Shown in pieces: positions 11,824 to 23,505 of a DNA stretch of 64,000 bases. The stretch comes from Paludibacter sp. (GTDB lineage Bacteria; Bacteroidota; Bacteroidia; Bacteroidales; Paludibacteraceae). Each line of letters begins with the position of its first letter. Position 1 is the first letter of the stretch. The translations under genes and the position numbers were made by a program. The notes beneath the pieces were generated by a model that was given only the letters and a program-made list of their open reading frames with translations, was not told the DNA's origin and did no database searches. The stretch spans positions 27,730-91,729 of the forward strand of contig JAYFRI010000077.1 in assembly GCA_034926015.1 (NCBI GenBank), given 5' to 3'.

Positions 11824-12885
11824 TTATTTTATCGTCACCATGGTTGCTCCAAATCCGTACTCACGAAACGAAGCATCCTGGAAATAATAGCTTTTATAGC
11901 GTGTTTTCAATAGTTTTTCCAATTCTTTGCGCAACACACCTTCGCCTTTTCCGTGAATAAAAACAATCTTTTGTCCTTTCCTGTTTTTATTTTCCTCAAT
12001 AACTGCATGAAATTTATCCAGTTGCACCTGTAGCATATCGGCATTGCTCAAGCCGGTGGTGCTATCGAGCAATTCGTTGATATGCAAATCCACTTCAATC
12101 ACATCGGGTGTCTGCGGACGTTTTATGATGCGTGGCCGTGCTGTTGTTTCCTCTTTCTGAAACATCGCCTTTTTGATTTCGTCGGGCGAAATATCCGACA
12201 ATTTCTGGTTTTCTTTTTCAGAAACGATATTCACCATCAGCGCCAAATCGTCGAAATAATCGTTGGCAACAAAACTATGAAGTTTATAGAAACGGACTAC
12301 ATTTATTTTTATTTTTGCATCAATTACTTCCTGAGGCACATAATTCTTAGCTATTTTCAACGGGATCAACTGCACACGAATTTGCTCCCAGGCGTTGAGT
12401 TGCTCCTTGGTGACCGAAGTTAATTCCTCCTGCGTATTGGGTTCTATCATTCCGTTGGCGACAGATTCCCACTGATCATTTTCGCCATTTACAATATTAT
12501 AGTACAGAAAATAGTTGCTATCGTTTATCAAATAACAATCATAAGCCGTAGTTTGCAATTGTTTGATATCAACAGGGAAAAAAGCAAGAAAAGCTTTGAG
12601 CGTTTCACCTTCGGGAGTCTCTATAATAGGTTGCGACCTCACCTCCAATACCTCTCCTTGAGAAGCTGGGAGCTGGGGCTCAGGCAATTTCGAAGAGAAA
12701 TCTTTTTTTATAAAATTAGTTTCTTTGTTGATTTCGCCAACAGACACACATTCGCGTTCGAGTACCGGAATTTCAAATCCATCTTCGTCCTCTACATATA
12801 TCAGTCGCTTCGCTTCATCGATACGGACCACTACTCCGCCACCTACAGCATTCAGAAAACGTACTGTATCACCTTTTTTTATCAT
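11824..12885 (-). CDS. DUF2027 / Smr (small MutS-related) domain protein
   Basis: C-terminal VDLHINELL...IVFIHGKGEGVLRKEL is the Smr signature. N-terminal MIKKGDTVRFLNAVGGGVV is typical of the Bacteroidota DUF2027-Smr family. Confidence 0.75.
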   Translation of the reverse strand: MIKKGDTVRFLNAVGGGVVVRIDEAKRLIYVEDEDGFEIPVLERECVSVGEINKETNFIKKDFSSKLPEPQLPASQGEVLEVRSQPIIETPEGETLKAFLAFFPVDIKQLQTTAYDCYLINDSNYFLYYNIVNGENDQWESVANGMIEPNTQEELTSVTKEQLNAWEQIRVQLIPLKIAKNYVPQEVIDAKIKINVVRFYKLHSFVANDYFDDLALMVNIVSEKENQKLSDISPDEIKKAMFQKEETTARPRIIKRPQTPDVIEVDLHINELLDSTTGLSNADMLQVQLDKFHAVIEENKNRKGQKIVFIHGKGEGVLRKELEKLLKTRYKSYYFQDASFREYGFGATMVTIK

Positions 12886-12963: not shown

Positions 12964-12971
12964 TACTTTTG
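12964..12971 (+). promoter_or_regulatory. -7 box TACTTTTG upstream of queA
   Basis: Exact TAnnTTTG. It overlaps the TTG start used by the ORF track, which argues for a downstream start. Confidence 0.45.
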
Positions 12972-13004
12972 CACAAAAATACAACAATTTTTTCGGTAAG
13001 CCAC

Positions 13005-14231
13005 GTGAACCTAACAAAAGACAACAGCCCGATTTATATCGACGAATATAATTATCCTCTTCCTGATGAGCGCATTGCTAAATATCCTCTGACAAAACGG
13101 GATGCATCTAAATTATTGGTTTATAAAAATGGCGAAATCACCGAAAGTGTGTTTTCTTCCATTTCTGACTTTTTGCCCCACAATGCGCTCCTGGTTTACA
13201 ACAACACAAGGGTGATACAAGCCCGACTTCTTTTTAAAAAAGATACAGGCGCCCATATCGAGGTTTTCTGTCTGGAACCGTTACAACCTGCCGATTATGC
13301 ACAATCGCTGGGCTCAACTACCGAATGCGTTTGGAAATGTATGATAGGCAACCTAAAAAAATGGAAAGAAGGCAAGCTGAGCAAACAAATAGAATTGGCA
13401 GGTGAGAAATGTACATTTACTGCCGAACGACTTCAGACCGAAGGCAATACCCACTGCGTAAAGTTCAGTTGGGACAATGCCGCAATTCATTTTGCCGATA
13501 TACTCGAAAATGCAGGCGAATTGCCTATTCCGCCTTATTTGCATCGCAAAACCGAGGAAAGCGATCTGACCACCTACCAAACCGTTTATTCAAAAATCAA
13601 AGGTTCGGTGGCAGCTCCCACAGCCGGATTGCACTTTACCGAAGATGTTTTTGAGGGCCTGAAACCCAAACAGATTACAATAGAAGAAGTAACGCTCCAT
13701 GTAGGCGCCGGCACTTTTCAGCCTGTAAAAACACGCGACATTGCCGAACACCACATGCATACCGAAGTGATCTCGGTTCAACGCAGCACAATAGAAAATC
13801 TATTGAAGCAATTGGGCAATATCGTCGCAGTGGGAACAACCTCGGTAAGGACTTTGGAGAGTTTGTATTATATAGGATCTAGCCCCCTAAATCCCCCAAA
13901 GGGGGACTTACATGTTCTACACGTAGATCAATGGGCTCCATATCAGACAAAAGACAAGCTTACAACACGGGAGGCTCTACAAAACATCATTGATTACTTA
14001 GAAACTAACAACCTGACTACGCTTCATGCCGAAACGCAGATAATGATAAAACCGGGCTATAAATTTCGTGTAGTGGATGGTATGATTACTAACTTTCATC
14101 AACCTAAAAGCACCTTGCTTCTGCTTGTTTCGGCTTTTGTGGGTGGCAACTGGAAACAGATTTACGACTACGCGCTTGAAAATGATTTTCGTTTTCTGAG
14201 TTACGGCGACAGTTCGTTATTGTTAAAATAA
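13005..14231 (+). CDS. queA: S-adenosylmethionine:tRNA ribosyltransferase-isomerase (start uncertain; GTG 13005 proposed)
   Basis: YNYPLPDERIAKYP...APTAGLHFT...VGTTSVRTLES...NFHQPKSTLLLLVSAF are QueA motifs. Contains an in-frame repeat insert at 13882-13909. Confidence 0.9.
   Translation: MNLTKDNSPIYIDEYNYPLPDERIAKYPLTKRDASKLLVYKNGEITESVFSSISDFLPHNALLVYNNTRVIQARLLFKKDTGAHIEVFCLEPLQPADYAQSLGSTTECVWKCMIGNLKKWKEGKLSKQIELAGEKCTFTAERLQTEGNTHCVKFSWDNAAIHFADILENAGELPIPPYLHRKTEESDLTTYQTVYSKIKGSVAAPTAGLHFTEDVFEGLKPKQITIEEVTLHVGAGTFQPVKTRDIAEHHMHTEVISVQRSTIENLLKQLGNIVAVGTTSVRTLESLYYIGSSPLNPPKGDLHVLHVDQWAPYQTKDKLTTREALQNIIDYLETNNLTTLHAETQIMIKPGYKFRVVDGMITNFHQPKSTLLLLVSAFVGGNWKQIYDYALENDFRFLSYGDSSLLLK
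13882..13909 (+). repeat. solo arm of the GC-rich palindromic family inserted in frame inside queA
   Basis: GCCCCCTAAATCCCCCAAAGGGGGACTT, translated as SPLNPPKGDL. Confidence 0.9.
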
Positions 14232-14341
14232 ATCATTCTATTTTTCTCTTGCACAACCCTTGTGTTTTTCGTGTTTTTGCGTAACATTTCATCAAATCCA
14301 TAATTTACAAGGATTTTACTTTATGGAAAAAATTATCATTA

Positions 14342-14501
14342 CTCTCCCCCTCGTTTGCAACGAGGGGTAAATGGTAAAGCGTTTTAAACGCAAAAAAGAT
14401 AGTTTTATAATTAAAAATTGAAATATATCATCAGAAAATTACATATCTCTTTGTTATAAACAAACAACCATAAAACCCCTCGTTGCAAACGAGGGGGAGA
14501 G
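14342..14501 (+). mobile_element. MITE-like element, copy A (160 bp, hairpin-forming terminal inverted repeats)
   Basis: Ends are CTCTCCCCCTCGTTTGCAACGAGGGGT and ACCCCTCGTTGCAAACGAGGGGGAG. No ORF. Near-identical copy at 15528-15883. Confidence 0.8.
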
Positions 14502-14570
14502 CCGATAAATTTAAAGAATATATTTTTGATTGGAAGATAAACCTACAGTTCTATGGCGATCTTTCAATAG

Positions 14571-15080
14571 CTATTTTACTTTATTATAGATATTATCTGT
14601 CCCAAATGGGAAATCGACATTTGTAAATTTAATTTGATTATTATTGATTATAATGATTTTGTATTTTTCAAATGAACTATTTAGATTAATTGTCTTATCG
14701 CTATTCAAGTGATAAAGTGTTACATCTATTCCATTTGAATCAATAATATATGCTCGTGTATATTTTGTATTGTCGTTGTTGTTAACGTGTGTATAATAAT
14801 ATTCACAAAAGCCATGTATGGTCATTTCTTTAGTTTCTCCATAAATATTTTTACCTATTATTGTCTCAGGTTTATCTATGTATGTCTCAGTAAAATTAAA
14901 TGTTGTTGTTGTCCCAATTATGTCAGGGTTCGAAATAAATGAACCATTTAGTACTTGAAGTACTTTCAATTGCTCAACTGTAAATGGACTCTTTATTTCC
15001 TCCTCATTTTTTGAACAGCCTAAAAAAAGAGTTAATACGATTACATTAGTGATCAATGCAGTTAAAAATGTATTTTTCAT
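14571..15080 (-). CDS. lipoprotein, function unknown
   Basis: Signal peptide plus lipobox (LTLFLGC-SKNEEE). Very AT-rich codon usage. Confidence 0.6.
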   Translation of the reverse strand: MKNTFLTALITNVIVLTLFLGCSKNEEEIKSPFTVEQLKVLQVLNGSFISNPDIIGTTTTFNFTETYIDKPETIIGKNIYGETKEMTIHGFCEYYYTHVNNNDNTKYTRAYIIDSNGIDVTLYHLNSDKTINLNSSFEKYKIIIINNNQIKFTNVDFPFGTDNIYNKVK

Positions 15081-15204
15081 ATTTTTATTGAGGGCTTATA
15101 TCCCATTCCTCCGATCGGTTGTTTACTTGTTATTCGTTTTCTTTCATTATTATCATATACGATAACCACACTGCAAATATATAATATTTTCTTTGTTATC
15201 ACAA

Positions 15205-15438
15205 ATGATAATAAAAAAAGTGAACGAATTTCAAATTTACATATTGATAGGCAAGAAGATTCGAGAAGTAAGAGAAAGTAAAGGGATTTCTCAACAAGAG
15301 CTTGCAGATCGTTGTAATTTTGAGAAATCAAATATGTCGAGAATTGAGGCTGGACGGACTAATTTAACTTTAAAATCATTGTTTCTTATTAGTAAGTCTT
15401 TAGATGTCCCTTTGAAATTATTTTTTGACATAGACTAA
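15205..15438 (+). CDS. XRE-family helix-turn-helix transcriptional regulator
   Basis: IGKKIREVRESKGISQQELADRCNFEKSNMSRIEAGRTNLTLKSL is a canonical HTH_3/Cro-C1 pattern. Confidence 0.85.
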   Translation: MIIKKVNEFQIYILIGKKIREVRESKGISQQELADRCNFEKSNMSRIEAGRTNLTLKSLFLISKSLDVPLKLFFDID

Positions 15439-15527
15439 AAGAAACACCATTTAATTATTACAACTGCACTAAATTTAACTGTTAAATTTATAACTTAAAA
15501 CAAAAAACCCGCTTAGTTATTCACTTA

Positions 15528-15883
15528 CACTCCCCCTCGTTTGCAACGAGGGGTAAATGGTAAAGCGTTTTAAACGCAAAAAAGATAGTTTTATAATTCT
15601 ACTTTACCACAATAAAATATTAACCACAAAAGGATACAAAAGAATCACAAAAGGAAGAAAATTAAATTAGTCATGATACAAAAAACACATTTTCATTGTT
15701 GAGAATTATTTCTTTTGTTGACTTTTGTATCTTTTTGTGGTTCAACTATCATTAAAAATTTGATTGTGTTTTAATTTAGTAAAGTAGAAATAATTAAAAA
15801 CTGAAATATATCATCAGAAAATTACATATCTCTTTGTTATAAACAAACAACCATAAACCCCTCGTTGCAAACGAGGGGGAGAG
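15528..15883 (+). mobile_element. MITE-like element, copy B (same family and orientation as copy A, carrying a nested insertion)
   Basis: Colinear with copy A apart from a 189-bp insert at 15599-15787. Confidence 0.8.
15599..15787. mobile_element. second MITE family nested inside copy B
   Basis: Termini CTACTTTAC / GTAAAGTAG. Subterminal inverted repeats CCACAAAAGGATACAAAAG.. / ..CTTTTGTATCTTTTTGTGG. ATAATT is duplicated on both sides (putative TSD). Absent from copy A. Confidence 0.75.
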
Positions 15884-15929
15884 CCGTTAGCTCATTAGTA
15901 TTTTCATAACAATTGAAAAACAAGCTTTC

Positions 15930-16700
15930 ATGAAAAACATCTTACAATCAAATATTTTTTTGAATATGAAACACATTTTTATATCCATCATTTCATTAGT
16001 CATATCAATCATCGCAATTGGGTTATGCACTATTCAGGTAACACCTTCATATTCAATAAACGAGCAAACCTACATAGGAATCATTGCAACATTAATTGGA
16101 GTGCTTGTTACTTTTGTTGTTGGTTATCAAATTTTAAACACCCTAACATTCAAAGATGATATGAGAAAATTTGAAGAAAAAACAAAGGAGATTGACAAAC
16201 TCAAGGACGAACTCTATTTATTAGAAAATAAGTTAAAAGAGAACTTTGAATTGTCATCCATCCGCTTGGAATATAGCAGTGAAGGCTGGACTTATAGTGG
16301 CGAAGGGTTTAAAAGAACTCATAAAATGTTGATTTATTCTTTGAATTGTAAGAGAGATGATTATACTGAGATATATGGCCTTTTAAGAACTTTTATTTCA
16401 GAACTAAACACAAGAAGTTTATTTGGACCTGGTTGGGTATTAAACACATCTAAGGATACTACTAATCATTCTATTAACTCTATTAATGAGGGTAGAAAGT
16501 TATTAGCTGATGCAATAAACGAATACGATATGGAAATTAAGAAAGATCAAAAAATAATCCGTAATCATGATAATTTTGGACAGATACGTTCAGAGTATGA
16601 AAGAATAATGAAAAGATATCTGAAAAGAATTGAAGAGTATAGAAATGAGCCTGCAAAAACTCTTTCTCAACAAGATAAAGATGAGTATCTAAAAGATTAG
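15930..16700 (+). CDS. 2-TM membrane protein with cytoplasmic coiled-coil/helical domain, function unknown (start may be 15966)
   Basis: Two N-terminal hydrophobic helices, then KFEEKTKEIDKLKDELYLLENKLKE heptad-like region. Confidence 0.6.
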   Translation: MKNILQSNIFLNMKHIFISIISLVISIIAIGLCTIQVTPSYSINEQTYIGIIATLIGVLVTFVVGYQILNTLTFKDDMRKFEEKTKEIDKLKDELYLLENKLKENFELSSIRLEYSSEGWTYSGEGFKRTHKMLIYSLNCKRDDYTEIYGLLRTFISELNTRSLFGPGWVLNTSKDTTNHSINSINEGRKLLADAINEYDMEIKKDQKIIRNHDNFGQIRSEYERIMKRYLKRIEEYRNEPAKTLSQQDKDEYLKD

Positions 16701-16797
16701 ATAAATCAACACTATAATAAAACTCTACATAGTGTAAGTCTCAGCGAATCGTGGACTTGTGCTGATAACCTTTTCACTCCACTTCCACATTTTAATT

Positions 16798-18366
16798 TTA
16801 ACTCAAAAGACTTTCAGGAAACTTTGATTCATTTACTATTGATTCATTTATTGTCTGAAGCTGTTTTAAAACTGTCATGGTCTCTCTGTATTCTCTTGCC
16901 TCTGCTACTTTTGTGAATTCAATTTCAGCGTTTGCATGTTCTTTCACAAATTCTTCAATTTCTTCAAGACTCACCTGAAAAAATTCCTTTCTTCTATTTA
17001 CGCGATTAATACGCTTGTCATTAAACTTTTTGTGTAGTTCATATTCTAATTGTGGAGCATTTTCGGAAAATATGGTAGCATGAACATCAAATCTAAATGG
17101 AACAGAAGCATTACTTAATTCATCAACCCTATCTTTCGGGTCAAGTCTACGAGTCATACCAATTTTATAAATATCTTCTCCCAGAGTACCTATATTTGAA
17201 ATGACATAAATATATCCAACTTTTGTAGTTTGAGCTAAAGCAATAGCTCTTTCTTTCTTCTCTTGAGCTTCCTTTATTTGAGCCTCTAATTCTTTAACTT
17301 TAGCATTAAGCGCATCAACTTCACTCGGTGTCACGATTCCAAATTTCTGTTTGACTTTTTCTAATGCTTTTTGTAAGTATCTTTCTTCTTCTTCGGCTTC
17401 ACGTTCGGCTTTCTCGTAGTCTCTGAGTGCTTTTTCTTCTTCTCTAATTTGCTCACGTATTCTTTTCTGTTCTTCTTTTTCTTCGTATTTTTTAAGCTGA
17501 TATTCATAATTCAACTGTAACTCTTCCAACTTTAAATAAAGAAATTCTTTTTGGATTTCAAGAGAGTCAACAACACCAAACTGATTTAATTTTTCAAATG
17601 TTTTAATGATTCGTTCTTTTGACTTTTCGACATTATTCCATTTAACCCTTGAAATTAGGCTATTGCATTCGCCATTAAATGCTAACAACCATAATTTCTT
17701 ATGCTTTTTGGTCATTCGACGTCCCTCGGCCACGCTATTGTTTACAGTCCATTCAATACGACACAATATCGCTTTGTCTTCATCAATTAATGCTTTTTGC
17801 TTCTCAAAGTTAGATAAAATTTCATTTTTAAATACTTCTGTATCATCGTAATTAAATCTTGGTTGATAAAGACCAAAAGAGCCAATTTCAATAGTATCTT
17901 TGAAAATTTCAATCTCTTGATTTAAGCTGTTATAAATACTCAATCCTTCGAGATATTTTTCATTCAGTTCAATTCTTGCACTAATCAGATCATTCAATGC
18001 AATTTTCTTTTTTTCAAATTCTATGTCGTGTTCTATATATAGAGAGTACTTTGAATTTAATTCATCATTTCTTTGCTTAAGATCTTTATTTTCTGAATTG
18101 ACTTTTTGTAATTCAATATTTAACAATAAAATACTATCCTCCTTTTCTTTTAAAGATTCTTTTAGAGAACATAACTCTTCTTCTTTCTCTATAAGAAGCT
18201 TGGTCTTTTCATCAACTTTTTGCTTTAATGCTTGATTTTCCGAGTTGACTTTTTGTAATTCAATATCCAACAACGAAATACGACCCTCCTTTTCTTTTAA
18301 GGTTTCGTTTAGTGAACACAGTTCTTCGTCTTTCTGTATAAGAAGCTTGGCCTTTTTGTAAAACAT
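16798..18366 (-). CDS. DUF4041 coiled-coil protein with C-terminal T5orf172 (GIY-YIG-like) domain
   Basis: C-terminus GYIYVISN..IYKIGMTRRLDPKDRVDELSNASVPFRFDVHA...LEYELHKKF...RKEFFQV matches the T5orf172 pattern. Long Glu/Lys coiled coil upstream. Confidence 0.8.
   Translation of the reverse strand: MFYKKAKLLIQKDEELCSLNETLKEKEGRISLLDIELQKVNSENQALKQKVDEKTKLLIEKEEELCSLKESLKEKEDSILLLNIELQKVNSENKDLKQRNDELNSKYSLYIEHDIEFEKKKIALNDLISARIELNEKYLEGLSIYNSLNQEIEIFKDTIEIGSFGLYQPRFNYDDTEVFKNEILSNFEKQKALIDEDKAILCRIEWTVNNSVAEGRRMTKKHKKLWLLAFNGECNSLISRVKWNNVEKSKERIIKTFEKLNQFGVVDSLEIQKEFLYLKLEELQLNYEYQLKKYEEKEEQKRIREQIREEEKALRDYEKAEREAEEEERYLQKALEKVKQKFGIVTPSEVDALNAKVKELEAQIKEAQEKKERAIALAQTTKVGYIYVISNIGTLGEDIYKIGMTRRLDPKDRVDELSNASVPFRFDVHATIFSENAPQLEYELHKKFNDKRINRVNRRKEFFQVSLEEIEEFVKEHANAEIEFTKVAEAREYRETMTVLKQLQTINESIVNESKFPESLLS
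18052..18345 (-). repeat. 2 x 147-bp in-frame tandem duplication inside the DUF4041 gene
   Basis: Residues 8-56 (LLIQKDEELCSLNETLKEKEGRISLLDIELQKVNSENQALKQ..) repeat as 57-105 (LLIEKEEELCSLKESLKEKEDSILLLNIELQKVNSENKDLKQ..). Confidence 0.85.
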
Positions 18367-18488
18367 AATTTTCTAATTTAGATCTTAATTCCATTTCTCA
18401 AATAAAGTAATGTCCAACAACCAATATATCCCTAATTGCACACTTTGTTCATTCATAAGATATCATCTGCATTAATTCCCTGTAAACC

Positions 18489-19607
18489 TTAATCATTTTT
18501 GGAAGAATGGCGTTTTATTTTCAGTTTAAATACATCATTAAAATTTGGTTCCATATTATAATACATTATTTTTGAGTTCTGTGTTAGTTTTTTTACAATT
18601 TCTTTTTCTGTCTCAGTACATTTATAACCGAAATAGATAGCCTCAATTTCTGCATTTTCTTTCATAGGTAATGCAATAAAGTCTTCTTCGCAATCCGCAT
18701 TATACGATATAAGGCGAACTTCGTTTTCGTACGACCAATTATAATCTTTTCGTAGAAAGCCAGTAGCTATTGACATTTTCGGAACATTCAAATCAACTAT
18801 TTCATTTGGCTCTTCACCATAAACTATCTTTTTAAGACAAACATAAGGTTTATTCAACTCCGCTTTTCGCTTTGAACCTACAAAATCATTTTTAAGTCTA
18901 TACTTCACACAAATACCTTTGTGACCATTGGCATAATGTGACCACATTAGGATATTTTGTGGTATTGTATTATCTGATTTCATAGTATCAGTATTCGCAC
19001 AAAATGATCTGATTCTATAGTATTGATATGACTTTGCCAAATTGCGTAAATGTTTACTATACTTCTCGCTTTTGTTGTCTATATTTACATGTCTAAGATT
19101 ATTCTCATCAAGCCACATCATAACCAAACTGTCAAATGGGTCATTCATACATTTGGGCCTTACCAATGTAATTGTATCATTAGCCAAATCGGCATAAGTA
19201 TAATTATTACAGACTCTAAAACTGTAAACAACAACTCCCTTTTCTTCGTTTCCCTGAAAATCTGTTTCAATTTGAGATAAACAATATTGATATCTTCTGA
19301 AATAATGCATTGATTTTGTATCATCTAAATATGACCATATCTGACCAGCAAGGGGATAGAAAACTTTTGCATCTTCAACAAGTTTGTTTGTTATGTAATC
19401 AATAACAATCGGATCAGTTTTCAAATTAGCCTTACAACTAATTACATTTTCAAACTTGGTAACTAATTCATCAATAAAATCAGAAGCTTCTTTCATTTTC
19501 AAATCATCTTTATTTATTATTGCCTCTTTGAAAGTTGCGTTTGCACTTTCAAGCAACTGCATATATTGATGCCAATCAATATAATCGCTAATTATATTTT
19601 TATCCAT
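18489..19607 (-). CDS. DUF2971-family protein
   Basis: Motifs CMNDPFDS, MWSHYANGHKGICVKY and NWSYENEVRL match the DUF2971 pattern, with an extra N-terminal helical region of about 130 aa. Confidence 0.75.
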   Translation of the reverse strand: MDKNIISDYIDWHQYMQLLESANATFKEAIINKDDLKMKEASDFIDELVTKFENVISCKANLKTDPIVIDYITNKLVEDAKVFYPLAGQIWSYLDDTKSMHYFRRYQYCLSQIETDFQGNEEKGVVVYSFRVCNNYTYADLANDTITLVRPKCMNDPFDSLVMMWLDENNLRHVNIDNKSEKYSKHLRNLAKSYQYYRIRSFCANTDTMKSDNTIPQNILMWSHYANGHKGICVKYRLKNDFVGSKRKAELNKPYVCLKKIVYGEEPNEIVDLNVPKMSIATGFLRKDYNWSYENEVRLISYNADCEEDFIALPMKENAEIEAIYFGYKCTETEKEIVKKLTQNSKIMYYNMEPNFNDVFKLKIKRHSSKND

Positions 19608-19640
19608 AATATTATTTTGTCACATAAACCTATTCACCAA

Positions 19641-19648
19641 CAAAGTTA
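19641..19648 (-). promoter_or_regulatory. -7 box (TAACTTTG on the minus strand) upstream of the DUF2971 gene
   Basis: TAnnTTTG match about 34 nt upstream of the ATG. No comparable box was seen in the 122-bp gap before the DUF4041 gene. Confidence 0.4.
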
Positions 19649-20073
19649 CAAAAACTATTTAACAATACAAACAATTAAAAATCAGCAACAATACGCTCAA
19701 TTATTCAAAATATTAGGGGAATAAGGCATTCAGCGGTTGATTGCACAGTTATCCTCTTCAATTTTATGTCGTAAAACATAAAAAAACACTTCAAAATAAT
19801 TCACTTTAAAGTTCTTATTTTCACAAGAAAGCAATATATTTACGGCGTGTTTACAAGCTGTATTTTACAGACGGATTCCGAAAGAAAAAAATCTCAAATC
19901 AACGGAAATATGATAACTACAAACAATACTCCACCAAACAATTAACCGCCACCGCTCACAAACGGATAGTTCGGTCATTGATCATTTCCTTTTCAGGTGG
20001 CGCAAATTACACTCAGGTGACTAAGAAAATAGTTTTTTTTTCGAAAGTATTAACTCATAAATTTATCAACATT

Positions 20074-20460
20074 ATGCCAATACAATATTCGTTGATACAA
20101 CGTGTCAACCCTAAAGATACAACTGCACCGCGCAAGTTTTATGCAATAGCCAAAAGTAGTGGAGAAGAAACCACCCGACAGTTAGCATCAGAAATCAGCA
20201 AACGCAATGGGCTAAGCATAGCCGATGTTTATGCAGTACTCGAAGCTTTTATCGACCTGATTCCTGAAAGACTGGCCGATGGTAAAATTGTAAGATTAGG
20301 TGACTTTGGTAGTTTTAGCCTGACTTTAAGCAGCGAAGGCACAGCTACTGCAGAAGAATTCACTTCGGCGCTTATCAAAGGCAATAGTCTGAATTTCCGT
20401 CCGGGCAAACTAATACAGAAAGCCCTCGACACAGTAGATTATGCAAAAGTAAGCGATTAA
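20074..20460 (+). CDS. HU-family DNA-binding protein (Bacteroidota long type)
   Basis: MPIQYSLIQRVNPKD...RKFYA..K....T.RQLA.EIS...GLSIADVYAVLEAF...GKIVRLGDFGSF, an HU/IHF-like fold pattern. Confidence 0.7.
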   Translation: MPIQYSLIQRVNPKDTTAPRKFYAIAKSSGEETTRQLASEISKRNGLSIADVYAVLEAFIDLIPERLADGKIVRLGDFGSFSLTLSSEGTATAEEFTSALIKGNSLNFRPGKLIQKALDTVDYAKVSD

Positions 20461-20532
20461 CTTACAATACATTACTTAGCGTGCAAGCAACAGTTGATTG
20501 ATTGGCTGAAAAGTCGTGATCAACAGCCTAAA

Positions 20533-20618
20533 AAATCATGCTTATGATTTTAAAAATCGTGAGCATGATTTACTCAACTCATAAGCATGATTTCATCAAG
20601 TCATGCTTATGATTTTTT
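20533..20618 (+). repeat. four copies of a 16-19 nt motif (AATCATGCTTATGATTT) in alternating orientation
   Basis: Copies at 20533-20551 (+), 20553-20571 (inverted), 20578-20593 (inverted) and 20600-20618 (+). Confidence 0.85.
20579..20618 (+). terminator. intrinsic terminator formed by motif copies 3 and 4
   Basis: TCATAAGCATGA / TCATGCTTATGA 12-bp stem, 10-nt loop, then T6. Confidence 0.7.
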
Positions 20619-20761
20619 CAAGACTTAATCATCAGTTTTAGGGAGGCCCTTTACATCGGCTCATCATCCACCCTATCAATTAACTAAAATCATCCTGACA
20701 CAGCCTATCGCATTCGTTGAATTTCGGAGAGCGATCATTTTTTTCATTTGCACAAACTTTA

Positions 20762-20778
20762 TATTTTTGTTACTTTTG
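20762..20778 (+). promoter_or_regulatory. two adjacent -7 boxes (TATTTTTG, TACTTTTG) upstream of guaA
   Basis: Exact TAnnTTTG matches 47-56 nt upstream of the ATG at 20825. Confidence 0.5.
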
Positions 20779-20824
20779 CGATACTTTTCAAAAAAAAACT
20801 ACTAAAGTTTATAGCATTTACTTC

Positions 20825-22342
20825 ATGGAAAAAATTATCATCCTCGATTTCGGTTCGCAAACCACACAACTTATAGGTCGCCGTTTGCGCGATTTGAATG
20901 AATACTGCGAAATTTTGCCCTACAACAAGTTTCCCGAACAAACCGACGAAATCAAAGGTGTGATTCTTTCGGGCAGCCCCTTTTCGGTATATGATCCAAC
21001 AGCCTTCAAAGCCGACTTAAGTGCCATTCGGTCTAAATTCCCGGTACTTGGTATCTGTTACGGCGCTCAATTTATGGCCTACACGTCGGGCGGAAATGTT
21101 GAAGCAGCCGGATCACGCGAGTATGGTCGTGCTAATCTGTCGTATATCGACTCAGAAGATCCGCTTTTCAAAGATATTCCTGTCGGATCGCAAATATGGA
21201 TGTCGCATGGCGATTCGATAACAAAAATTCCTGATCATTTCAAAAAAATAGCCAGCACCAACGACGTAGAGCTGGCTGCTTATAAAATAGAAGGCGAACC
21301 AACCTGGGCTGTTCAGTTTCACCCCGAAGTTTACCATACCCTGGATGGAATTGCCCTGCTCGAAAACTTTCTTAAAATTTGCGGCTGTAAACGCGACTGG
21401 TCACCAGCATCGTTTGTAGAATCGACCGTTGCTGAGCTGAAAAAGCAATTAGGCAACGACAAAGTGGTATTAGGCCTCTCGGGAGGTGTCGACTCTTCGG
21501 TTGCAGCCGTATTGCTCCACAAAGCCATTGGCAAAAACCTCACTTGCATATTTGTAGATCATGGTTTATTGCGAAAAAACGAATTCGAAAACGTAATTAA
21601 GGATTACGAACACCTCGGACTGAATGTGATAGGCGTGAATGCCAAAGAATATTTTTATAAAATGCTCGAAGGCGTTTCCGACCCGGAGAAGAAACGCAAA
21701 ATCATTGGCGCAGGCTTTATCGATGTCTTCGACAAGGAAGCCAACAAAATTGAAGATGTAAAATGGTTAGCCCAGGGCACTATTTATCCTGACATTATCG
21801 AGTCGCTCTCCATCACCGGCACTGTGATTAAATCGCACCACAATGTAGGCGGCCTTCCCGACAAAATGAAACTGAAACTTTGCGAACCGCTTCGTCTGCT
21901 TTTCAAAGATGAAGTACGGAAAGTGGGAACCGAGTTAGGCATGATGCATCATCTGATTAAACGTCAGCCGTTTCCAGGTCCGGGATTGGCTGTCCGCATC
22001 CTTGGCGACATCACTGTCGAAAAAGTGCGCATTCTACAGGAAGCCGATGACATTTTTATCAACGGTCTCCGCGAATGGAACCTGTACGACAAAGTTTGGC
22101 AGGCAGGCGTTATTTTACTGCCTGTACAATCAGTTGGCGTTATGGGCGACGAACGCACCTACGAAAATGCCGTTGCCTTACGTGCAGTTACTTCCACCGA
22201 TGCCATGACAGCCGATTGGGCGCAACTGCCTTACGAGTTTTTGGCAAAAATGTCCAACGAAATCATCAACAAGGTAAAAGGCGTCAACCGCGTGGTGTAC
22301 GATATAAGTTCGAAACCACCCGCAACTATTGAGTGGGAATAA
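20825..22342 (+). CDS. guaA: GMP synthase (glutamine-hydrolysing)
   Basis: [40 protein letters not shown]...ATIEWE C-terminus. ATG at 20825 preferred. Confidence 0.97.
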
Positions 22343-23340: not shown

Positions 23341-23430
23341 GGAGAGGTGCTCGAGTGGTTGAAGAGGTACGCCTGGAAAGCGTATATACGGTGTGGAATC
23401 GTATCGAGAGTTCGAATCTCTTCCTCTCCG
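23341..23430 (+). tRNA. tRNA-Ser (anticodon GGA)
   Basis: Acceptor GGAGAGG/CCTCTCC, anticodon loop CUGGAAA, long variable arm, T-arm GAGAGTTCGAATCTCTT. No encoded CCA. Confidence 0.9.
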
Positions 23431-23505
23431 CAATTTTCTAACAATGAGAGAATTAAAAACAAATAAAATAAAAACAAAAATTAAAAATCTTTAAAAAAAA
23501 GTAAA

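Follow-up and report, generated by a model that had tools for sequence, protein, structure and literature searches.

An accessory phage-defence island, probably gained by recombination, at the variable queA/guaA site of a Paludibacter chromosome

Introduction

The locus discussed here is a ~6.5 kb island between the housekeeping genes queA and guaA of Paludibacter sp. (contig JAYFRI010000077.1), and its closest described counterparts are the hotspot defence islands of Escherichia coli and Pseudomonas and two families of defence proteins. Hotspot islands have conserved housekeeping flanks, variable cargo and a deviant composition, and in them several unrelated defence genes adjoin one another together with small repeats and insertion sequence (IS) activity (PMC12629846). 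PD-lambda-1 is a defence system of Vassallo et al. (2022; PMC9519451), and is now called SNIPE (Saxton et al., 2026; PMC13190303). The E. coli SNIPE protein is a GIY-YIG nuclease, anchored in the membrane, that cleaves the DNA of a phage while it is being injected, and without its transmembrane (TM) helix it becomes toxic through cleavage of host DNA; the number of TM segments among SNIPE homologues is one in 59%, two in 7% and zero in 34% (PMC13190303). Aristaios is a single-gene abortive-infection system of a lactococcal plasmid, with a DUF2971 domain and a predicted ADP-ribosyltransferase fold (PMC11381338), and among the ADP-ribosyltransferases the DUF2971 family is placed in the H-Y-E clade, near DarT (PMC12522546).

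The whole stretch of 64,000 nt that was analysed is termed the window, and the island occupies positions 14232–20720 of it. It is very likely that this interval is an accessory phage-defence island at a variable queA/guaA spot, probably gained by recombination. The island is an ordinary instance of an already known kind and resembles the hotspot islands in all the properties listed above, but it differs from them in being small (6.5 kb) and integrase-free, and in carrying relics of core-gene ends.

Composition and gene content

The GC content of the island is 31.0%, compared with 40.5% for the rest of the window. Relative to 446 segments of the same length elsewhere in the window (mean 40.7%, standard deviation 1.6, minimum 37.4) this is a z of −6.2. 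The tetranucleotide L1 distance is 0.384 for the island against 0.132 ± 0.020 elsewhere (maximum 0.18; z = 12.4). An earlier, sequence-only reading of this DNA had judged by eye that the island is more AT-rich than its flanks, and the GC profile bears this out. GC at third codon positions (GC3) is 22–27% in the five left-hand genes, compared with 43% in queA and 49% in guaA. In the HU gene (GC 42.6%) and to the right of it the composition looks native, and the compositionally foreign core is therefore ~14340–19800.

All the content that the sequence-only reading listed is found: genes for a lipoprotein, an XRE regulator, a protein with two TM segments (2-TM protein), a DUF4041/T5orf172 protein, a DUF2971 protein and an HU-like protein, and two copies of an element like a miniature inverted-repeat transposable element (MITE). 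No integrase or transposase open reading frame (ORF) is on the ORF list of the interval. The ORF list and Pfam together show no recombinase or excisionase ORF there, and no structural, replication, lysis or integration genes. Rfam has no match to the island at gathering score, with a single chance-level match at E 0.7. The sole tRNA of the window, a tRNA-Ser at 23341–23431, lies 2.6 kb past the island. With no integrase ORF and no nearer tRNA, the interval does not qualify as an integrase-mobilised island. The absence of an integrase, a transposase and a tRNA boundary thus holds for the window, but other strains carry an IS4 transposase gene in this same island, as described below.

A scan with the hidden Markov models (HMMs) of PADLOC identifies two defence genes, PD-Lambda-1 (E 2.6e-154) and PDC-S31 (E 1.3e-32). 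These adjoin, and lie in DNA that is missing from relatives, as is expected of a defence island. The proposed phage-defence or abortive-infection character is upheld by these matches, with the refinement that the product of the DUF4041/T5orf172 gene, SNIPE, is a nuclease that acts directly and not by abortive infection (PMC13190303).

The queA-guaA site in relatives

A scan with QueA, with one genome taken per species, gave 57 loci, the closest of which are Paludibacter metagenome-assembled genomes. Sixteen loci hold queA and guaA on the same strand, and their gap contents were compared (Table 1). Besides the gene-free gaps, a PAS sensor kinase is found at seven loci if the L001 cargo is included; the gap in L047 is 1.9 kb. 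The L001 cargo consists of the sensor kinase, small ORFs, a gene for a 640-aa secreted protein, and DUF2971 and HU genes as in the window, and only these last two are common to both cargoes. The lipoprotein, XRE, 2-TM and SNIPE genes occur in none of the 57 related loci. The relatives are close ones: L002 flanks are 94–99% identical in nucleotide sequence to those of the window, ThrS is 100% identical in L002 and L047, and the guaA product has 98–99% amino acid identity to those of L001, L002 and L003. Since the block as a whole does not recur at this site in relatives, which have empty sites or alternative cargo instead, it is accessory and the site is variable.

The block might also be looked at as ancestral core content of the genus that was lost repeatedly, with its AT-richness a product of gene function or expression level. 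DUF2971 and HU are indeed held in common with L001, and the composition of HU is native. However, the closest relatives L002 and L047 carry the sensor kinase instead, six lineages have an empty site, and the left edge of the island keeps the empty-site arrangement as a relic. In addition, the GC3 values are far outside the range of the window. We consider ancestral core content extremely improbable, and retain an accessory island.

The kinase is an observation in its own right. The gene for this PAS-domain sensor histidine kinase is convergent with queA, and the protein is 44–98% identical across seven Paludibacter-group lineages. It is missing from the window though the closest relatives carry it, and no partner response regulator was seen beside it.

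Table 1. Positions of features in the window, gene content of the queA-guaA gap in related loci, and operons that end with a relative of the 2-TM protein (2TM)
Feature	Position or locus	Strand	Remarks
queA	12969..14231	+	left flank; Pfam Queuosine_synth E 1.8e-101
Relic of ancestral queA-guaA spacer and first 17 nt of guaA	14232..14339	+	ATG at 14323
MITE-like copy 1	14339..14507	.	169 bp, 27-nt perfect terminal inverted repeats; abuts guaA relic
Putative lipoprotein, 169 aa	14571..15080	-	N-terminal hydrophobic segment 3-24, LFLGC motif
XRE-family helix-turn-helix (HTH) regulator	15193..15438	+	Pfam HTH_3 E 7.3e-12; divergent from lipoprotein gene
MITE-like copy 2	15525..15889	.	97-99% identical to copy 1
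2-TM protein	15930..16700	+	unannotated family; two hydrophobic segments, then long helix
SNIPE / PD-lambda-1 homologue, 522 aa	16798..18366	-	DUF4041 and T5orf172
DUF2971 protein, 372 aa	18489..19607	-	36.2 bits to Pfam DUF2971 (cut-off 22)
HU-HIG family DNA-binding protein	20074..20460	+	Pfam HU-HIG E 2.9e-31; NCBIfam HU_rel
Two long hairpins from four TCATGCTTATGA copies	20533..20612	+	TCATGCTTATGA four times within 20536-20612
Predicted functional guaA promoter region and start	20730..20841	+	ATG at 20825; right 25-nt repeat copy 20817-20841
guaA	20825..22342	+	right flank; Pfam GMP_synt_C and GATase
Gap with no gene, 81-263 bp	L003, L004, L005, L007, L019, L028
Gap with one PAS sensor kinase	L002, L017, L024, L026, L027, L047		single ORF of ~570-590 aa
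Gap with one other gene	L013, L018
Gap with 7.6 kb cargo	L001
BrxC-PglX-PglZ-BrxA-like-2TM	L059-L065 (L059 6001-6780)		human-gut Bacteroidales contigs
SNF2/PLD helicase, MmeI-type methyltransferase, 340-aa protein, 2TM	L066 6001-6783
Eco57I-type methyltransferase, then 2TM	L154 1120-1863		overlapping stop/start codons

Island edges and recombination scars

The left edge of the island is a relic of the arrangement found at empty sites. It is ~88–90% identical to the cargo-free spacer of L004, stays collinear with that spacer all the way from the 3′ end of queA into guaA, and stops exactly after nucleotide 17 of guaA (ATGGAAAAAATTATCAT). At the right edge, the spacer from 20584 onward is 93–94% identical to that of L003, which has no cargo, and the guaA promoter region and start (20730–20841) match L003 and L001 to the same degree. 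In L003 the second of the two hairpins that lie at this edge directly follows the queA stop codon, with no cargo. A 25-nt stretch at 14315–14339 recurs over the start of guaA at the right edge, with a match of 24/25. The likeness of the two copies continues upstream of the core for ~110 bp, at ~70–75% identity, as would be expected of two orthologous guaA promoter alleles. L004 and the functional copy keep a TAnnTTTG promoter box, which is gone from the relic; the real guaA has such boxes at −54 and −63. The relic also reads into the MITE-like element, and if still transcribed 14323–14370 would yield a peptide of 15 aa (MEKIIITLPLVCNEG), the promoter box being mutated.

L001 shows a comparable feature. 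A 42-nt relic of the queA 3′ end is found inside its cargo, just after the kinase gene (L001 13162–13203); recombination has thus left two scars at this hotspot. The module formed by DUF2971, HU and the guaA promoter is ~95–96% identical between the window and L001, compared with ~90% for the guaA body and the left flank.

A repeat that flanks the island exactly, with its left copy cut at nucleotide 17 and its right copy functional, has the layout of attL and attR at a gene end. It could thus mark the remnant of a site-specific integrative element that entered at the guaA 5′ end and brought a promoter and start with it, its integrase having been lost or acting in trans. This is unlikely. No integrase, recombinase or excisionase ORF is present, and the likeness between the copies does not end with the repeat but continues upstream as in orthologous promoters. 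The right copy with its hairpin is a chromosomal spacer in cargo-free L003. Furthermore, the cargo is a mosaic whose modules occur apart in L058 and L001, and the left junction of L001 has the queA 3′ relic in place of a guaA-start relic. The flanking direct repeat is accounted for by what appear to be two orthologous guaA 5′ ends.

The left relic, the cargo-free right spacer of L003 and the lack of an integrase favour recombination over site-specific integration, in line with the earlier suggestion that the island was acquired by recombination and is not an intact mobile element. The core-gene-end relics suggest that both illegitimate and homologous recombination took part. Most likely the island arrived by recombination with DNA of another Paludibacter lineage. 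One crossover, in or beyond guaA, would have been anchored by homology, and one illegitimate join would have been made at nucleotide 17 of the resident guaA. The pattern of a homologous exchange plus an illegitimate join is named homology-facilitated illegitimate recombination.

A SNIPE homologue without a membrane anchor

By sequence comparison, the DUF4041/T5orf172 protein is a full-length PD-lambda-1 (SNIPE) homologue. Its residues 45–514 match positions 28–485 of the 491 in the PADLOC PD-Lambda-1 model (PDLC03976). DUF4041 is recognized at residues 224–279 (Pfam PF13250, E 3.5e-19; 68.9 bits, cut-off 27), and the C-terminal domain matches Pfam T5orf172 (E 3.7e-18) and MUG113 (E 3.3e-20). 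The nuclease residues Y387, Y400, R406/407, E441 and N454 are invariant in 30 SNIPE homologues. The AlphaFold2 model (mean pLDDT, the predicted local distance difference test score, 78) has a continuous helix at 4–158, DUF4041, a second helix at 273–380, and an alpha/beta C-terminal domain. A fold search with this model gave weak matches to the GIY-YIG protein Slx1 only (probability 0.6–0.7, E > 0.1), and PDB sequence searches were empty or at chance level.

The domain order, i.e. a variable N-terminus, DUF4041, a long helix and GIY-YIG/T5orf172, is that of E. coli SNIPE. Unlike the E. coli protein, the window protein has no N-terminal TM helix, and a coiled coil of ~155 residues is found in its place. 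A Kyte-Doolittle scan detects no TM segment in it, and 116 of the 120 closest homologues also have none. Common to these homologues is the N-terminal motif MF(F/Y)xKxKLL, with the coiled coil after it. As 34% of all SNIPE homologues are TM-less, the missing segment is no bar to SNIPE membership. Residues 2–12 were looked at as a possible amphipathic helix for membrane targeting, and their hydrophobic moment is not significantly above that of shuffled sequences (p 0.03–0.33). By homology with the E. coli protein, the GIY-YIG domain of the window SNIPE would cleave phage DNA at the membrane as it enters, and the coiled-coil N-terminus rather than a TM helix may position the protein. Membrane targeting is here presumed by analogy.

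A 147-nt tandem duplication (18061–18354) encodes two 49-aa coiled-coil units at the N-terminus. The gene in L160, a near-identical contig, encodes a protein of 571 aa with three copies of this unit (L160 1769–2211), and thus the length of the N-terminal rod varies within the population. The next-closest SNIPE homologues are 452–504 aa in length.

The DUF2971 and HU genes

The DUF2971 protein matches the PADLOC candidate PDC-S31 (PDLC04990) near full length, at positions 9–256 of 259. Motifs NDP, LMWSHYANG and YExExR are intact, and residues H224, Y225, Y293, E294, E296 and R298 are invariant when the protein is aligned with six homologues. These are motifs of the ADP-ribosyltransferase type, i.e. 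a conserved H/Y and ExE, as defined in PMC12522546. The gene is 91% identical to that of L001, and the protein has no solved relative by sequence in the PDB. As in Aristaios, a single DUF2971 gene has its H/Y/ExE-type motifs intact. It should be pointed out that Aristaios is likened to the window protein by description, and that both it and PDC-S31 differ from the window protein, which has an extra N-terminal region of ~125 residues without a family match. The protein is a predicted ADP-ribosyltransferase-like defence protein and may act as an abortive-infection toxin of that type.

The neighbouring HU-HIG protein belongs to a Bacteroidota family of HU-like proteins, and is 98% identical in L001. 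The HU and DUF2971 genes are divergent. A sensor/effector pair like PANGU was considered for them and found no support, as PANGU uses YejK-like proteins and not HU; no HU gene was found near DUF2971 homologues in six viral contigs, these homologues being weak matches.

An unannotated family of two-TM proteins

The gene to the left of SNIPE, which is convergent with it, encodes a membrane protein that no Pfam family or PADLOC model covers. Its true start is probably M13, at 15966. Hydrophobic segments are at residues 9–41 and 45–74, and the AlphaFold2 model (pLDDT 91.4) has helices at 2–35 and 45–139, the latter of ~95 residues. This model has no match in PDB or BFVD, by fold or by sequence. 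A word-indexed search gave only four near-identical relatives, and an exhaustive one with HMMER gave 283 clusters at 50% identity. The family members are all 200–260 aa in length, and their alignment shows two TM helices ending in GYQIxN, a long helix, and a C-terminal NFxxIxxEYERIM region.

Profiles of the SLATT_5 type from three libraries give sub-threshold matches on the N-terminal ~100 residues: 19.3 bits against a cut-off of 29.5 for Pfam SLATT_5, 25 against 60 for NCBIfam SLATT_5, and an E of 1.3e-4 for PADLOC RTasSLATT. The Pfam SLATT_5 match is found in 2 of 40 family members. As in the SLATT effectors (SLATT_5, NF033631, RTasSLATT), two N-terminal TM helices and a helical region are found in a defence-island context. 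The C-terminal domain, a small sheet plus helices without a match, sets the 2-TM protein apart from them. The partners differ as well: SLATT proteins accompany SMODS/SLOG proteins or reverse transcriptases, whereas the 2-TM family accompanies BREX-like and restriction-modification (RM) operons.

Distant members, with 26–31% identity, are the last gene, often coupled in translation to the one before, of an operon of DNA-modification type, and three operon types were seen (Table 1); the contexts come from a few subclades and are to be taken as a lead, not as a statistic. The PglZ of the BREX-like loci is unusually short (482 aa), and the BrxA-like protein is 207 aa in length. We tentatively propose, with somewhat less than even confidence, that the family constitutes undescribed defence-associated membrane proteins. 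It could provide an effector or sensor that backs DNA-modification immunity and that stands alone here. The window protein is thus a candidate membrane effector or accessory factor.

The proximity of the 2-TM and SNIPE genes raises the question of whether they form a split SNIPE, in which the 2-TM coiled-coil protein serves in trans as the membrane anchor of the TM-less nuclease. The TM anchor of E. coli SNIPE is needed against self-cleavage (PMC13190303) and the window homologue has none; its neighbour has two TM segments and the long helix; and the pair recurs in contig L058, without the MITE-like element. On the other hand, the two genes are convergent and form no operon, and L058 is near-identical (92–95% nucleotide identity) and so is not independent. 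A search with the family HMM found no 2-TM family member near 80 metagenomic SNIPE loci (508 kb), and none lies beside three closer SNIPE homologues at six loci. Most of the closest SNIPE homologues are TM-less too, and the distant 2-TM relatives of the BREX-like and RM operons have no DUF4041 gene nearby. A conserved two-gene system was rejected, as the pair recurs only in near-identical L058 and no family member was found at the SNIPE loci searched, and anchoring in trans is very unlikely. The 2-TM protein and the nuclease most likely act independently, as do the other island genes.

Repeat elements

The MITE-like copies are short and non-coding, have terminal inverted repeats and occur in multiple copies, as MITEs do; there is no clear target duplication around the two main copies. 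Each terminal inverted repeat holds a hairpin with a 9-bp stem. This motif is present four times in the window, with none expected, and beyond the two copies it was not found in the rest of the window or in 57 related loci. Shorter related copies, two in number, are in the IMG/VR contig L153.

Copy 2 is split by a nested element of 191 bp (15599–15789) with ends CTACTTTAC/GTAAAGTAG. The nested element has its own internal inverted repeats, is unrelated to its host MITE, and is flanked by a 6-bp target duplication, ATAATT. In L159, copy 2 lacks the nested element and represents the empty site, which shows that the 191-bp element was inserted.

The sequence-only reading described an array of palindromic motifs at the right end of the island. 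Four motif copies are present as described, but they are really two hairpins, at 20533–20571 and 20579–20612, the second of which leads into a T-run and is scored as an intrinsic terminator. Compared with shuffled sequence, the folding of the hairpin region is far more favourable (z = −7.0). Neither the MITE-like nor the palindrome repeats match an Rfam family.

The same island in other strains

The exact lipoprotein sequence is found on at least 23 metagenome contigs. In those long enough to judge, the order HU-DUF2971-SNIPE-2TM-XRE-lipoprotein-queA is kept with 94–100% identity and the same queA junction. Two contigs, L162 (1104–2675) and L164 (from 712), have a 1572-bp IS4-family element in MITE-like copy 1. 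Its ends are CTACTCTTTATACACA, and it has a 9-bp duplication, GTTTGCAAC, in the loop of the right hairpin, which corresponds to 14482–14490 of the window. This suggests that the IS4-family element targets palindromic repeat elements. With its order and junction the same and its differences small, the island is stable in the chromosome of this population, with small-scale change ongoing.

The lipoprotein and XRE genes, and the flanks

The lipoprotein/XRE pair is bracketed by the two MITE-like copies. The putative lipoprotein (GC3 21.8%) has no match in Pfam, NCBIfam, PHROGs or PADLOC, and the PADLOC matches of the XRE protein are to generic HTH and control-protein models. The promoter region of the divergent pair is spanned by an imperfect inverted repeat of 47 nt (15120–15241; 74% complementary), a possible operator that extends over the start of the XRE gene.

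On the left flank, a segment of ~130 bp within queA (13877–14006) is hypervariable and does not align with L001, L002, L004 or L161, whereas the queA sequences on either side align at 85–97%. The segment encodes ~45 hypervariable QueA residues, beside the island. The low queA identity to close relatives had been considered as a recombination tract, and this was rejected, as the divergence is confined to this one segment. The gene between thrS and queA (11824–12885) encodes a DUF2027 plus Smr protein and is beside queA across the family.

Origin of the island

The island may be viewed as a mosaic of at least three modules: the lipoprotein/XRE pair with the MITE-like copies on either side; the convergent pair of 2-TM protein and SNIPE nuclease; and the DUF2971 and HU genes, which would come with their own terminator hairpins and guaA promoter. 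The defence activity of each island gene is a putative one, by analogy with described systems.

Several points weigh against a recombination-acquired defence island. The window SNIPE lacks the TM anchor that prevents self-cleavage in E. coli, and the lipoprotein and XRE genes have no specific defence assignment in Pfam, PADLOC, NCBIfam or PHROGs. A flanking direct repeat of 25 nt is also expected from site-specific integration. The direction and number of the recombination events are not reconstructible from the draft genomes at hand. Finally, the SNIPE and DUF2971 families are also found in phages, according to PHROG matches, and parts of the cargo may derive from a degraded prophage or satellite.

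Taken further, this last point would make the whole interval a fragment of a decayed prophage or phage satellite and not a host defence island. XRE and HU match PHROG families as SNIPE and DUF2971 do, the MITE terminal repeat is also in an IMG/VR contig, and a small lipoprotein beside an XRE repressor resembles a prophage immunity/exclusion module. Nevertheless, the phage genes sought in the interval are absent, the modules occur apart elsewhere and the island is only 6.5 kb, and the PHROG families matched have no assigned phage function. A phage remnant is thus highly improbable, and an accessory defence island remains the preferred reading.

Significance

Current concepts of defence islands are unchanged by this locus, whose interest is modest; its value is that of a well-characterised example and a source of candidates. 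Among its genes are a well-understood defence gene, here without the anchor, a candidate for abortive infection, and a member of an unannotated family of membrane proteins. The case shows a small defence island forming in a Bacteroidota chromosome without an integrase, where relics of core-gene ends mark the splice points. A Bacteroidota clade of SNIPE proteins that lack the anchor which prevents self-damage, and that have a rod of variable length, bears on how the nuclease is positioned and restrained. The most promising lead is the 2-TM family, which through its ties to BREX-like and RM operons is a candidate defence component.

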